NCBI GenBank assembly: GCA_964016885.1
Contig: OZ024740.1
Span: 380,866,001-380,930,000, forward strand
Direction of reading: 5' to 3'
Source of the DNA: Eledone cirrhosa
Taxonomy: Eukaryota
Length of the DNA stretch: 64,000 bases
Under the pieces are notes generated by a model. That model was not told the origin of the DNA. It made no database searches and saw only the letters and a list, made by a program, of their open reading frames with translations. A program made the translations under genes and the position numbers. Below are positions 3,201 through 55,439 of this stretch, one piece after another; position 1 is the stretch's first letter; the number at the start of each line of letters is the position of its first letter.

Positions 3201-3307
3201 TACAATCTACGTTCCCAAGTATTGAGTACTTAGCTGAACAATGGCGTTACTTCTTTAAACTGGTAAATCCCAATCTCTCTCTCTCTCTATATATATATAT
3301 ATATGTT

Positions 3308-3487
3308 TTGCTGATTGAGATGGAGGGGTTGTGGTTTTCTCGCAGATGTGAGAAAAACCACAATACCTCCATATCAATTCTACTTTTGAAAAGCACAAGA
3401 ACTGCGAAACCGGTAAAGGAACCAAATAAATATATAAATAAAAATAAAAAGACTCCAGTTGCATTTTCGATTTCATCTTTTTTCCTT
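3308..3487 (+). mobile_element. Short HHR-bearing element (U3-A8 family) with 5' fold-back, between (TA)n tracts
   Basis: Inverted arms around ~3344; homologous to 3975-4135 (-) and 40071-40270 (+). Confidence 0.75.
3378..3421 (+). ncRNA. Minimal type I hammerhead, U3-A8 core variant
   Basis: ttc(ta)ctt-UUGAAAA-gca caagaac tgc-GAAAC CG GUA-aaggaa: bulged stem I, stem II gca/tgc, palindromic stem III ACCGGU. Confidence 0.65.
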
Positions 3488-3507
3488 ATATATATATATA
3501 TATATAT

Positions 3508-3706
3508 AGTGGTAGAACACTGGAAGCTAATATCCGTAGTGGTAGAGCACTCAGTCCATGGGACGAGTTAGGTAGAAGTGGTTACACAACAGTTAGTTCA
3601 CCATACCGAGAACAATTGTTTCACCTTAGCGGATCCTCATTACGAGGTGAGGATCCGCTAAGGTGAAACAATTGTTCTCGGTATGGTGAACTAACTGTTG
3701 TGTAAC
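3508..3706. mobile_element. Fold-back element containing an HHR-like motif
   Basis: Inverted arms ~3581-3639 / 3648-3706, flanked by (TA)n. Confidence 0.7.
3643..3680 (+). ncRNA. Minimal hammerhead with C3->G substitution (probably inactive)
   Basis: cgag-GUGAGGA-tcc gctaa ggt-GAAAC AAUU GUU-ctcg; perfect 4-bp stem I and palindromic stem III. Confidence 0.6.
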
Positions 3707-3740
3707 TAGTTATATATATATATATATATATATATATATA

Positions 3741-3952
3741 ATAGAAACGAGTAGGACCCCGACGGCTGAGCTCAAGCCGTTTCGACGGCTAATTCCGGAC
3801 TAAATGGACATTTAGTCCAGAATTAGCCGTCGAAACGGCTTGAGCTCAGCCGTCGGGGTCCTACTCGTTCCTATTACCCACTCTACTACCCTAAGTATTG
3901 AGTACTTTGGTGCGTTATGGTCCATCTGGTTCCTTACCACATTTCCTTCGTT
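3741..3952 (+). mobile_element. Fold-back element with the 3' half of a hammerhead (GAAACGGCU...AGCCGUC); same family as 38646-38876 and 51580-51790
   Basis: Inverted arms 3741-3806 / 3809-3875; stem III with GUC triplet at 3832-3854; 3' tail shared with the other copies. Confidence 0.75.
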
Positions 3953-4034
3953 ATATATATATATATATATATATAAGGAAAAAAGATGAAATCGAAAATG
4001 CAACTGGAGTATTTTTTTAAATATATTTATTTGG

Positions 4035-4078
4035 TTCCTTTACCGGTTTCGCAGTTCTTGTGCTTTTCAAAAGTAGAA
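4035..4078 (-). ncRNA. Minimal type I hammerhead, U3-A8 variant (second copy, within element ~3975-4135)
   Basis: Reverse complement matches 3378-3421. Confidence 0.65.
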
Positions 4079-4350
4079 TTGATATTGGGGGTTTGTTGTT
4101 TTTCTCGCATCTGCGAGAAAAACCACAAACCCTCTTTGAACATAACTTTGATTCCTGTGAATTATATATATATATATATATATATATATATATATATATA
4201 TATATATATATATATATATATATATATATATATATATATAGAGAGAGAGAGAGAGAGAGAGAGAGAGAGAGAGAGAGAGAGAGAGAGAGAGAATTCATAT
4301 ATATATATATATATATAGTTAAAAGAATAGAGGTGTAACACACAAGTTAT

Positions 4351-51672: not shown

Positions 51673-51772
51673 GCACACCCGATGGCTGAGCTACGGCCGT
51701 TCGACAGCTAGATCCGAACTAAACTACCAGTATTAGAACGGCGGGAATCTAGCTGAACTTATCAAGCAGTAC
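51673..51772 (-). ncRNA. Degenerate full-length hammerhead of the 3741/38646 family (UUGAUAA core)
   Basis: UUGAUAA-g..cagctagattc...ggatctagctg.c-GAAC GGC...GCC AUC; family 3' tail at 51580-51670. Confidence 0.5.
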
Positions 51773-52014
51773 AGTCCATATATGGACATGCAGTGAAAAC
51801 AAAAAAAGCAGCAATATCAAAGCAAAAAATCCTAAAATTTGTTGTTTTTCTTGCGTCACGGGGAGTGGTCAATGATCTGGAGTCTCATGTACATAGTTTA
51901 ACTATGTACATGAAACGGCGAGAGCTCATCCGTTGGGGGTCCCTACACTTTTCATATATATATATATATATACGATATATTAACAAATGGAAACTATATT
52001 TATAAAACCATATT

Positions 52015-52079
52015 TATTTCATTATACATATTTCAAGGACACCAAGTTAAATTATGGTGTGCTTTCATCAGATAAAATA
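52015..52079 (-). ncRNA. Minimal type I hammerhead (AUA site)
   Basis: tattttat-CUGAUGA-aagcacacca...tggtgtcctt-GAAAU AUGU AUA-atgaaata. Confidence 0.85.
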
Positions 52080-53691
52080 TAATATAGAGCAGTTTTATAA
52101 ATAAATATTGACATACCCTTAAAGAATGCGACCATTTCTGTTGGAAGCTCCCGGATAGTGGGGTTATAAATTTATTTATACTATTATGCAAATTAGTTTC
52201 GGATATTTTTAAATCACAGTAGATTTAAATAAGCCGTTGGGTTATGGAGAAAGAGAAAGAGAAAAAAGAGAAAAAAGAGCAAACTCTAAGAGGAAAATAA
52301 GAAAAATAAGAAAAGGAGAAAGAGAAGAAAAAAAGAAAAGAGAAAAGAGAAAGAGAAAGCTCTAAGTGATAGGTTGTTGTATTAGCTTAACTTTTGAGAT
52401 GAAGTGAAAGAATAAATATTTAATGAATGGGTAAAGAAGTGTAAATAAGCGTGAATGGAAATACATAAATAGTAGGAGAATTTTAACCATTGTTTAAATA
52501 TGATTAAATGTTTAGTTTATCAATTAGATTATTGAGATATATACATTAAAAATTGAGATCTATATATTATTAAAAAATCTATATATTATTAAGACTATAT
52601 ATTATTAAAAAATCTATATATTATTAAAAGAATATATTCATATATATACATACGCACACACAGATATATATACATATAAATATATATACATACACCTGCA
52701 TATACATACATATACATACATACAATAAAGGACTTTTTAATTTAAGATATAGGAATTTTCATAAACTTATAGATTTTTCGGAGAAAATCGTAGAAAAAAC
52801 AGAGAAAATCATTTCTATGTAATAGCGAAACAGCGTGAAGGAAATTAAGTTATTTACTTATATTAAATGTTACAAATGTTAAGATAGTAAAGGAAATTTT
52901 AGGTTATACAAACGTTATGTTATTTACAATTTTTTTTAATAAGTTTTATATCTAATAAATCCACCTGTTATGTAGTTGTGACTGTTATTATATAAGTTTG
53001 TTTATCACGAACCTTAAGAAAATCCTTATAAACGAGTGCATTCGAATTGTATGCATATATATATATACACACAATCCCCACATAGATACACATAGACGTA
53101 CTTACACATACAGGTAGATATGCATCACATATATATATATACATACACACACATATATATATATATACACATACATATATATATACACACATACATATAG
53201 AGAGAGAAATATAAAAATACTGTACATAGTATAATTGAAGTACATAATATATATAATATAAAATAAAATAAAATAAAATAAAATAAAATAAAATAAAAAA
53301 TAAAAATGAATTATATTACGATTTGGAAATATAATTATAAGCAATGTAACTTTAAATCAATATAATTTTTTAAAATATTATAGAATATTTCAAGATATAA
53401 TTTTAAAATAAGAATATGTTTAATAGATTAAGTATAAAAATTTAAATTTTCTATATAATATCTAGTTCTCAGTATGTTTAACTTAATTTTATAGCCATAA
53501 GAAAAAGAAAGAGAAACTTTCAAAAATAGGAGAAACTTTCAAATAAAATATTTTCCCCTTTTAAGAGCTTTCAGTATGTTTCTCTAGAAGAATTTTTTTT
53601 TTTTATTTAGGGAAAAAAAATTTTTTTTTTCTTTAATGGTCGCATTCTTTAAGGGTATGTCAATATTTATTTATAAAACTGCTCTATATTA

Positions 53692-53756
53692 TATTTTATC
53701 TGATGAAAGCACACCATAATTTAACTTGGTGTCCTTGAAATATGTATTATGAAATA
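53692..53756 (+). ncRNA. Minimal type I hammerhead (AUU site)
   Basis: Mirror of 52015-52079. Confidence 0.8.
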
Positions 53757-53900
53757 AATATGGTTTTATAAATATAGTTTCCATTTGTTTATATATCGTA
53801 TTTTTACTCCAATAATTTGTTGAGTGCTTTATATCAGTTATAAAAATATTTGCTTGTATCCCAACAATTTAAATAGAACTTCTACATATATATATATATA

Positions 53901-54618
53901 TTAAGATAAGCAGAACAAGTAAAATTCAATCAATTTTTCAAAATACATTAAAAAATATAATATAAATATTTACCTCTCCTAGTGGCCCTTACTGATCAGT
54001 TTCGCTTTGTAAAACCTCATAAATCCGATGGATTTATGATGGAAAACCAAAGCTCATCATTGAACAACCTTGAATCATAGACAACCTATGTATTTCTAGG
54101 GGTACCTAGTATCCCTGGACATATTAACTTCTACCTTTTTCTCCGTCCGTTGAGAACAATCCTGTTGCTCTACTTGGCTGCTATTTTTTTAGTAGTAATT
54201 GTAGACAGCAAGTCTTTGATTTTCCCGCTTTTACTTCGGTCCAGTTTACATACGGGTCAATTTTACGACCTTTCAGACCTTTATTAGCTGGCAGGAGGTT
54301 GTATATTTTGTCGTTCCTGGGACGTTTAGCCCTAGGAAGGGAAAATGCTTCTCTGATGAGCTTTGGTTTTCCATCATAAATCCATCGGATTTATGAGGTT
54401 TTACAAAGCGAAACTGATCAGTAAGGGCCACTAGGAGAGGTAAATATTTATATTATATTTTTTAATGTATTTTGAAAAATTGATTGAATTTTACTTGTTC
54501 TGCTTATCTTAATATTAAAGTTCTGGTGTATCAAATTAACACCATTGAACAACCTTGAATCATAGACAACCTATGTATTTCTAGGGGTACCTAGTATCCC
54601 TGGACATATTAACTTCTA
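53901..54618 (+). mobile_element. Retrozyme-like element: inverted 5' segment, then a 485-nt monomer with 76-nt terminal redundancy
   Basis: 54058-54133 = 54543-54618; 53901-54059 is the reverse complement of 54354-54512; one HHR; (TA)n flanks. Confidence 0.85.
54349..54427 (+). ncRNA. Type I hammerhead, intact core
   Basis: ttct-CUGAUGA-gctttg...tcataaatcc atc ggatttatga...caaagc-GAAAC UGAUCA GUA-aggg. Confidence 0.9.
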
Positions 54619-55439
54619 TATATATATATATATATATATATATATATATATATATATATATATATATATATATTAGAGCTTCTACAGCTTCTACTTCTAG
54701 TCCTGTAGAAGCTCTTCTATATTAAAACAATTATACTCTGCTATGTATTGAGTGCCTTACTTACTTTGGTTACCTCCGATTCAACCCGGAATAACTTGTA
54801 TATATATATATATATAATGTATTTATTTGTAAGTGTAAATGTTAAGATGCCATTTCTGTAATATTCGTCTGACTCTTTCTTTATTCAATATATCATTATA
54901 CCATTTTTTAAAACGTTACTAAAGTTCTCACACTATTCCTTATCCCACGCTCAGCTCTATTCCATCTGCATACGATGTTATACTTTTACAGCTCCTCTCT
55001 TTTTCTTGTCAATACATATTATAGCGTTTTTCTCTCCCACTCTTTTTCACTCATCATTTGCATATCTATCATTTTATCTCTCCCTACCCTTTTTTCTGTC
55101 TTCCTATCAAACTAAATGATTGTTGTTTTAAACAAATTTTTCCAGCCACTTTTTCAATTCTTTTTCTTTAACTTTTTAACAGTAGACAATCCATTTTTAC
55201 TTTTTTGTTATTTTTGAACTTATCAACACTAACGTTCAACTTCAACTGAATATGTTCATTATATTTTCTAGTCATACAATCACATAAAGAAAAAATATAC
55301 GATAGAAGAACGCTGGATTGAAGCTGTACCAGCCATTAGTTCCATCCGTCTATTTTCTGAGTTCAAATCCCACATGGGTTAGTTTTTAATGTCATTCGCA
55401 TTGCAAAAGACAAAATGGCAGCAATTTATTTCATTTCAT

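Follow-up and report, generated by a model that had tools for sequence, protein, structure and literature searches.

Penelope-like elements (PLEs) are the closest retroelement relatives of telomerase, and among the questions that they raise are how the template is recognized and why some copies carry an optional "tail." In the Hydra clade (Craig et al. 2021, PMC8557442; here and below, statements about cited papers refer to the portions of their text available to us), the described features are a GIY-YIG endonuclease (EN) at the C terminus, RWK and DKT motifs, a CxCX5C linker, a hammerhead in sense orientation past the open reading frame, (TA)n targets, and an optional tail. For the Poseidon element PAc, a 2024 in vitro study (Frangieh et al. 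2024, PMC11167929) found that the tail ends match two internal start sites of reverse transcriptase (RT), that RNA 3' of the starts is needed, and that both DNA strands are cut and extended; in the available text, no binding motif is defined. A preprint derives retrozymes from the pseudo-long terminal repeats (pLTRs) of PLEs (10.64898/2026.07.22.740005). Here, we analyze a 64,000-nucleotide stretch of the Eledone cirrhosa genome (assembly GCA_964016885.1, contig OZ024740.1, positions 380,866,001 to 380,930,000 of the forward strand), called the window throughout, whose shown part (positions 3,201 to 55,439) holds Hydra-type elements with a doubled covarying hairpin, each copy lying behind a TA patch where insertions end.

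The elements analyzed here share with the Hydra clade (PMC8557442) its protein motifs, hammerhead, (TA)n target, and optional tail. A protein search from an open reading frame (ORF) remnant in the window gave 347 relatives, of which 150 were listed, and an alignment of 20 of these led to loci on genome contigs (10) and in metagenomes (79, among the best 80 of 350 stretches). These 89 loci, chosen by the Penelope-like protein alone, form 70 families at 75% identity. An alignment of their 22 intact ORFs has a C-terminal GIY-YIG EN after the RT and the consensus forms RMRWK and ADKT, and the linker reads CNCRxKxxC. Window remnants hold ADKS and, at 37236-37676 (−), CNCRSNRTC; no RWK-bearing remnant was found in the window, and the GIY-YIG match of a window remnant (Pfam E = 0.0012) falls short of the curated cut-off. 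A sense hammerhead lies within 900 nt past the ORF end in 62 of the 89 loci, many of the other 27 ending too early, and (TA)n insertion is seen in the window as well as in 26 family-level junction rows among the loci. Window hammerheads that adjoin ORF remnants lie on inverted arms, and window families A, B, C, E, F, H, L, and M, for which there is no ORF remnant, are assigned by hammerhead, target, and hairpin only. By these sequence features the carriers are Hydra-type PLEs, and the elements that a preliminary description of the window had taken to be otherwise unrelated all read as ends of this one type. Loci L001 to L010, Hydra-type PLEs that have hammerheads and in some cases (TA)n junctions, lie on contigs of bacterial metagenome-assembled genomes or symbiont assemblies, most likely as contamination from an animal host. 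A word-based protein search found no match.

A bulged hairpin with covarying arms

The window is rich in (TA)n and in type I hammerheads, whole or 5'-truncated. The preliminary description had noticed a shared motif behind several hammerheads, and every string that it quoted recurs in place or within 1 nt. The 9-mer GTATTGAGT has 8 exact copies (0.94 in shuffles), and the 12-mer form, with at most one mismatch, has 6 (0.62 in shuffles). Upstream of each GTATTGAG-like string lies a 5' arm, giving ACTC-[stem-loop]-TT-GAGT, with upper stems that vary in sequence yet pair (TAC/GTA, CAA/TTG, GTCC/GGAC). The quoted string is only the 3' half of a bulged hairpin that is conserved and has its 5' arm farther upstream; GAGT rather than GAGC was seen because pair 1 is A-T in the window. 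The observation of a shared motif is partly confirmed by the window evidence. A hammerhead upstream on the same strand, as had been described, is present for the sites at 3895, 38819, 51637 (−), 29173 (−), 50850 (−), 8336, 53819, and 25745 (−), some of these type I hammerheads being whole and some 5'-truncated, and was judged by reading the sequence to be present at 3558 (−) and 54745 too; it is lacking at 3219, a 5'-truncated piece. The microsatellite said to follow soon after the motif begins 37 to 65 nt from the GAG, except at 50850 (−), which has no junction nearby. The 11 genuine sites represent 8 families (A three times, B twice) and are not 11 independent cases. The string at 207-221 is not the motif; its family recurs at 14330-14460, where the string is upstream of the short end and outside any tail. 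The eighth exact 9-mer, at 61787, is without a 5' arm or a clear hammerhead. Overlooked variants of the same fold are at 23884 (+), 4856 (−), 54520 (+), 54140 (+), 58785 (−), and 57097 (−). Homology across whole tails, which the preliminary description had named as a check, is no longer detectable between families: p was below 0.02 in 4 of 115 between-family pairs of window tails (about 2.3 expected), compared to 5 of 5 within-family pairs.

The consensus of 58 distinct instances from 34 families is GCTC-Y-[4-24 nt]-R-T-N-GAGC-ACT-N-T. Pair 5 (Y-R, across the bulge) is Watson-Crick in 55 of 57 instances, 40 being C-G, 15 T-A, and none crossed (Fisher p = 8e-14, kinship ignored). Pair 6 is Watson-Crick in 33 of 54 (14.2 expected) and pair 7 in 25 of 37 (9.8 expected), and pairing in off-register controls is at chance level. 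A pair-counting tool, run on 33 instances with 10- to 13-nt spacers (one near-duplicate excluded), counted 33 cells changed on both sides versus 13.7, with lower values in every slid register. On a tree of 33 proteins, none of them a reference PLE protein, the type of pair 5 switches 9 times, and at least 5 switches are forced by well-supported branches. The two copies, where both were called, differ in type (T-A or C-G) in 9 of 22 families, L002 being a tenth whose scripted call (C-A) was wrong and which reads T-A in the hairpin listing. The bulge has T at position 1 in 55 of 58 instances and is free at position 2, and a paired purine precedes the bulge in 55 of 58. When pairs 1 and 2 were left free, pair 1 was G-C in 54 of 63 and T-A in 5 of 63; in the window, pair 1 can also be A-T and pair 2 T-A (54520). 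The small AGUAU/GUACU hairpin proposed earlier does form in copies with a weak or mutated 5' arm only; it is impossible in the marine consensus GTTGAGCACT and is not the conserved fold. Pairing of the 3' end of the motif with the hammerhead core was considered as well and rejected, a one-column check showing no covariation.

A covariance model built from marine instances only gave 9 matches in the window at E ≤ 5, 8 of which are sites of the preliminary description, and missed 3219, 38819, and 25745. A custom scorer, designed when the window variants were already known, gave 12 matches at a score of ≥16 (1.07 in shuffles) and added families L and M; a loose descriptor (24 matches versus 15 in shuffles) and low-score model matches (scores of 9 to 13) were too noisy and were not used as evidence. 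Rfam covariance models gave 0 matches at E ≤ 1 in 6 hairpin loci, with a sensitivity so limited that the hammerheads of the same loci were missed too, and in an Rfam scan of the window all of the matches listed (150 of 332) were microsatellite or palindrome noise below gathering scores.

The loci chosen by protein show the same signal after collapse into families. Among the 48 families with a hammerhead within 900 nt past the ORF end, GAGCACT is the commonest nonmicrosatellite 7-mer behind the hammerhead, in 17 families versus 0.2 from ORF windows; many families without it stop at the short end. The earlier 12-mer, with at most two mismatches, is found in 8 of the 48 families, compared to 2 of 283 ORF windows and 1 of 48 on the antisense strand, and the region behind the hammerhead can be aligned in only 9 of 1128 family pairs. 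The hairpin is also doubled. In the families for which 110 nt or more precede the ATG (27 in all), the detector, run within 160 nt of it, counted three hairpins in 2 families, two in 17, a single one in 6, and none in 2, although the "two" of L078 counts one hairpin twice (its true second copy was found with the lower-stem pairs freed) and the "three" of L051 includes an overlapping false match. The hairpins are 57 to 70 nt apart in 16 of 19 families, the last core ends 12 to 39 nt before the ATG in 22 of 25, and the first hairpin starts 18 to 85 nt past the hammerhead cut (24 families); the background within ORFs is 16 matches per 75,544 nt (0.03 per 160 nt). A viral sequence collection yielded neither relatives nor the twin motif, and a scan of prokaryote genomes for the twin motif gave 11 matches, one on the contig of L007 and 10 taken, unexamined, for chance.

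Some loci have further copies. An extra degenerate hairpin (core GAGTAGT or GAGTAGC) lies about 15 to 30 nt past the hammerhead cut in L019, L027, L037, L049, and Hydra-1_Amil, and L049 and the Hydra-1_Amil consensus seem to end after it. L004, L008, L009, L023, L055, and L070 have hairpin matches on the minus strand that probably belong to inverted pLTR copies; the plus copy of L004 breaks off at the bulge within hairpin 1, and the inverted copy begins next.

Insertion ends and the optional tail

Many insertions in the window are foldbacks with two arms. In all 10 foldbacks compared (A three times, B, E, F, I, L, M, and the palindrome at 4320-4750, which do not make up a systematic census), one arm is short and the other has an extension corresponding to the known PLE tail; where the motif is present in foldbacks, it is inside this extension only. 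The preliminary description had placed the motif about 30 to 60 nt before the 3' end. That distance is not what the signal sets; the ends lie 0 to 6 nt upstream of a hairpin. In the window, they are 2 to 6 nt before it in 9 of 11 comparisons. Among the loci, downstream copies aligned to a longer reference end 0 to 5 nt before a hairpin in 10 of 11 families (hairpin 1 in 3 families, hairpin 2 in 7). For the eleventh, aligner overshoot gave +6 where the reading by eye is −2, and six other loci reached the end of their data and are uninformative. Thirteen of the 26 (TA)n junction rows have no hairpin, 13 have one, and none has two, those with one ending 34 to 47 nt past the hairpin GAG. Of 58 hairpins, 45 have a TA-like 4-mer in the 9 nt upstream; farther up, 6 of 58 do. 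The short end is marked by the hairpin that can be seen, the long end by a second one that copies as a rule do not include. The Penelope tail is likely to be the stretch between the two hairpin-marked sites, holding hairpin 1; in the analyzed elements, it is about 60 to 75 nt long and bounded by two copies of one signal, whereas the available text of PMC8557442 gives a tail of 30 to 40 bp through EN resolution and does not mention a hairpin.

In the six published Hydra consensus sequences (PMC8557442), the hairpin is clear by eye in three (Hydra-2_Amil, Hydra-2_Ajap, and Hydra-1_Ajap) and degenerate in three. The Hydra-1_Ajap consensus begins 2 nt before hairpin 1 and has both copies at its 5' end, and Hydra-2_Amil and Hydra-2_Ajap have hairpin 1 at their 3' ends; the other matches of six searched 9-mers were in Naiad or Chlamys sequences, in unrelated contexts.

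Both end sites are found in the single locus of family L, a unit of about 485 nt at 54057..54618 (+) that has no element ORF and reads tail, hairpin 2, hammerhead (about 54352-54425), hairpin 1, tail. Hairpin 1 (54520..54553, +) has a compensatory lower stem, GTTC/GAAC, and the short arm stops 4 nt before it; hairpin 2 (54140..54158, +) has TCTC/GAGA, and the long end at 54618 equates to 6 nt before it. Reads and contigs of other copies, which represent few loci, have a tandem joint from 54610 to 54126 (485 nt) in 4 of 4 runs examined, with few distinct read starts; they enter (TA)n at 54515-54517, and hairpin 2 variants follow 54616-54617. Pile-ups of reads at 54200, 54487, and 54534-7 were set aside as probable RAD-seq cut sites. 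With a tandem unit in the range of 150 to 1000 nt, a type I hammerhead, and no ORF, family L fits the non-LTR retrozyme kind by its sequence. The available text on non-LTR retrozymes (PMC7229834; 10.64898/2026.07.22.740005) names no cis signal beyond the hammerhead, to which family L adds the hairpin pair, a candidate minimal cis signal for animal retrozymes.

Readings of the hairpin pair

The motif outlasts collapse into families and is tied to insertion ends, which supports the earlier suggestion of a cis signal for 3'-end definition or RT recognition; the earlier interpretation as a whole is partly supported. The leading reading, to which we give about even odds, is that the hairpins are docking sites for the element protein on the element RNA and set the RT start. 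An element-encoded protein would dock on a hairpin in the RNA, copying would start 0 to 6 nt upstream, and the nicked (TA)n target would pair with the UA patch before the hairpin and prime there. A start at hairpin 1 would give the short end and a start at hairpin 2 the long end, and the optional tail would be the distance between the two start sites because copying starts at one or the other. Less firmly, the invariant U bulge beside G-C and A-U pairs may be an arginine-sandwich protein site, and a protein dimer on both sites, facing opposite target strands, may give rise to foldbacks with one short and one long arm. The tail and the foldbacks could then be one event, in which a dimer of the telomerase-like protein sits on two TAR-like hairpins of one RNA, one subunit priming ahead of hairpin 1 and its partner ahead of hairpin 2. 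The full picture, with this one-event dimer priming from both nicked (TA)n strands and the hairpin pair acting as a portable address sufficient to mobilize ORF-less retrozymes, seems to us doubtful, although worth stating.

Small RNA stem-loops are known to recruit RT and position priming, as in the 3' stem-loops of long and short interspersed elements (LINEs and SINEs) and the bulged epsilon stem-loop of hepadnaviruses. These act at the RNA end or template a primer, whereas the Hydra-type copies would set two internal starts. The likeness to PAc (PMC11167929) includes two internal starts that define the tail, an AT-rich target, priming of both strands, and a predicted dimer. The PAc starts, however, are inside the ORF, at an AC-rich stem-loop, with neither target homology nor a defined binding motif in the available text; the Hydra-type sites are in the 5' untranslated region, each with a TA patch able to pair with the target and a defined hairpin downstream of it. 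Figure text for PAc hints at a similar UU-bulged pairing around the AC-rich loop, which is a weak lead only. The arginine sandwich of TAR has U23 in a triple with A27-U38, above A22 (Pham et al. 2018, PMC6189040). The secondary-structure pattern of that site, in which a paired purine comes first, then a bulged pyrimidine, then G-C and A-U pairs, is present in the hairpin, which shares with TAR and 7SK a paired purine, a bulged U, a variable spacer base, and then G and A pairs; it differs in that the loop closes the other helix end and a conserved unpaired ACU-N-U follows. The resemblance appears as a likeness of secondary structure only, and a link between the conserved N-terminal RMRWK motif and the bulge pattern would be speculation.

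Several observations weigh against docking on RNA. In two window families the end is 19 nt (B) or 12 nt (F) upstream of the hairpin, K-type tails lack the motif, and in the near-complete copies of L005, L019, and L030 the 5' junction coincides with hairpin 1 or is within it, where a signal for starts only predicts none. The PAc start lies inside its AC-rich stem-loop, not 5' of a hairpin (PMC11167929). Conservation of the lower stem is partly circular, since the detector demanded a GCTC or ACTC arm and a GAG core. Sense-strand G.U versus A.C at pairs 6 to 8 is 12 versus 7 (p = 0.36), pair 5 is without any G.U in 57 instances, and folding energy gives the sense strand no advantage. Such strict Watson-Crick pairing, without G.U at pair 5, speaks for signals in single-stranded DNA (ssDNA), or in a cruciform: the GIY-YIG endonuclease would bind a cDNA intermediate and cut at the TA patch, a few nucleotides 5' of the stem, so that tandem or foldback cDNA would be trimmed at site 1 or 2. 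We take this seriously as the main alternative, though a less likely one. Hairpins coincide with 3' junctions and with some 5' junctions; Drosophila Penelope EN requires the tail on plasmid DNA (as cited in PMC11167929), and tails were put down to EN-mediated resolution in PMC8557442. The GIY-YIG nuclease SsnA binds an ssDNA hairpin, recognized by sequence and structure with the loop and RNA ignored, and cuts a few nucleotides upstream (PMC11893778). Ssn nucleases resemble the present case in the fixed stem, free loop, important flanking bases, cut a few nucleotides 5' of the stem, and GIY-YIG fold, but they are bacterial, stand-alone enzymes acting on ssDNA, with no RT and, in the available text, no bulge described. 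Against trimming, PAc tail ends match RT start sites measured in vitro (PMC11167929), and short-ended copies are without hairpin 1, so copying and then removal would be needed every time. RNA docking and ssDNA cutting are not mutually exclusive.

Transcription is an unlikely basis for the repeat. As a core promoter on either strand, including the antisense promoter once suggested, or as a TAR-like RNA 5' end, it would make the end classes RNA ends, and the starts of three near-complete copies do fall at hairpin 1 or within it; Penelope itself has an internal promoter, its 34-bp repeat scores as promoter-like (PMC2377424), and bidirectional pLTR promoters have been proposed (PMC3846280). Covariation across a 6- to 26-nt spacer is unexpected for a double-stranded promoter box, however, 3' ends at both hairpins are left unexplained, and normal Penelope initiation does not need the 34-bp repeat (PMC2377424). 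The closeness of the last hairpin core to the ATG would suit a role mainly in translation, the protein repressing its own mRNA at hairpin 2 and the ends being a side effect of RT stalling, but the ORF-less unit at 54057-54618 retains both hairpins and the ends are on the 5' side of the hairpins, at TA patches, which makes this very improbable. Almost no credence is left for the absence of any signal, that is, for a remnant of coding sequence (one frame of the string gives I-E-Y) or for shared ancestry: every carrier belongs to one element group, yet flanks are unalignable between families (9 of 1128 locus pairs and 4 of 115 window pairs) and compensatory changes recur on the protein tree. A coding explanation is ruled out, because in intact elements the motif precedes the ATG.

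Hydra PLEs have been described before, as have their hammerheads, their tails, and their targeting of (TA)n. Literature searches, whose coverage stopped short of figures, Repbase comments, bioRxiv supplements, and subscription papers (Pyatkov 2004; Arkhipova 2006), found no description of the hairpin, which is a real cis element, apparently undescribed, within a known retroelement class. It is a covarying element of 20 to 30 nt common to dozens of families, its position predicts both ends within a few bases, and the pair of hairpins gives curators a boundary rule for Hydra elements.

Hairpin sites and other features of the window

In family A, hairpin 1 occurs at 3880..3906 (+), with ACTC/GAGT and a TT bulge, at 38804..38830 (+), with a mutated 5' arm, and at 51626..51652 (−), with a TC bulge; the foldback short arms stop 3, 5, and 5 nt before it, respectively. 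Family B has it at 29162..29183 (−), behind a complete hammerhead with its core start at 29249 (−), and at 54735..54756 (+), the exception in which the short arm stops about 19 nt upstream. Hairpin 1 of family C (50839..50861, −) is behind a hammerhead with a mutated GAAA (50929, −), and that of family D (8325..8347, +), with 1 mismatch in the 5' arm, is behind the hammerhead at 8247 (+). In family E (53806..53828, +), the upper stem is CAA/TTG, and 2 other copies stop 4 nt before the hairpin. Family F (3546..3568, −) has a 1-nt bulge and G-C at pair 5 and is, on a strict reading, the other exception, its short arm diverging 12 nt upstream. The hairpin of family H (3204..3230, +), whose 5' arm is mutated, is in a 5'-truncated piece consisting of tail only. 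In family I, the second hairpin (25734..25770, −) is weak, does not fold, and was missed by the marine covariance model; the first, which starts near 25816, 4 nt past the short end, is more decayed still. Family M has hairpin 1, GCTC/GAGC with a long loop, at 23884..23932 (+), where it had been overlooked, and at 4808..4856 (−), where the short arm stops 2 nt before it. Two more hairpins are at 58757..58785 (−), with a marine-type core, GAGCGCT, and no hammerhead found upstream, and at 57061..57097 (−), with 1 mismatch in the 5' arm and behind a half hammerhead (57170, −).

Other hairpins were noted near hammerheads. Elements with CCGG in hammerhead stem III (40165-40272, +, and 4320-4400, −) have tails that open with a different hairpin, ACTYGTG-N5-CACCTC, 5 to 8 nt past the short end, which may be the signal of a different PLE lineage. 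At 14160-14215 (−), an element with a hammerhead (14212, −) has GTTC...GTT-GAAC right after the cut site, a possible variant of the hairpin at an odd distance.

The PLE ORF remnants comprise an N-terminal Hydra-type part with a DKS motif at 7736..8071 (−), adjoining family D; a tblastn match at 11842-12030 (+); the GIY-YIG endonuclease of family I at 26630..27005 (+), a Hydra-type tblastn match; and two Hydra-type remnants of RT thumb, linker, and EN at 35865-36919 (+) and 37245-37670 (−). Just past the EN stop of family I, at 26988-27503, are tandem repeats of 113/119 nt, several with CTGATGA and none with a complete hammerhead. Near-identical duplications of about 0.7 to 1.4 kb, read by eye and direct except for one that is inverted, pair 24240-25650 with 29960-31240, 29300-29960 with 31400-32080, and 25770-26700 with 28060-28990; they could be recent events or assembly artefacts. 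Long foldback palindromes are also present at 17900-18440 and 48270-48620, the second built of a SINE-like repeat and not of a hammerhead element. Decayed non-LTR ORFs at 6400-7700 (+), 8880-10130 (+), and 10650-11465 (+) are presumably RTE-like and of two restriction-like-endonuclease types, with CCHC-like motifs.

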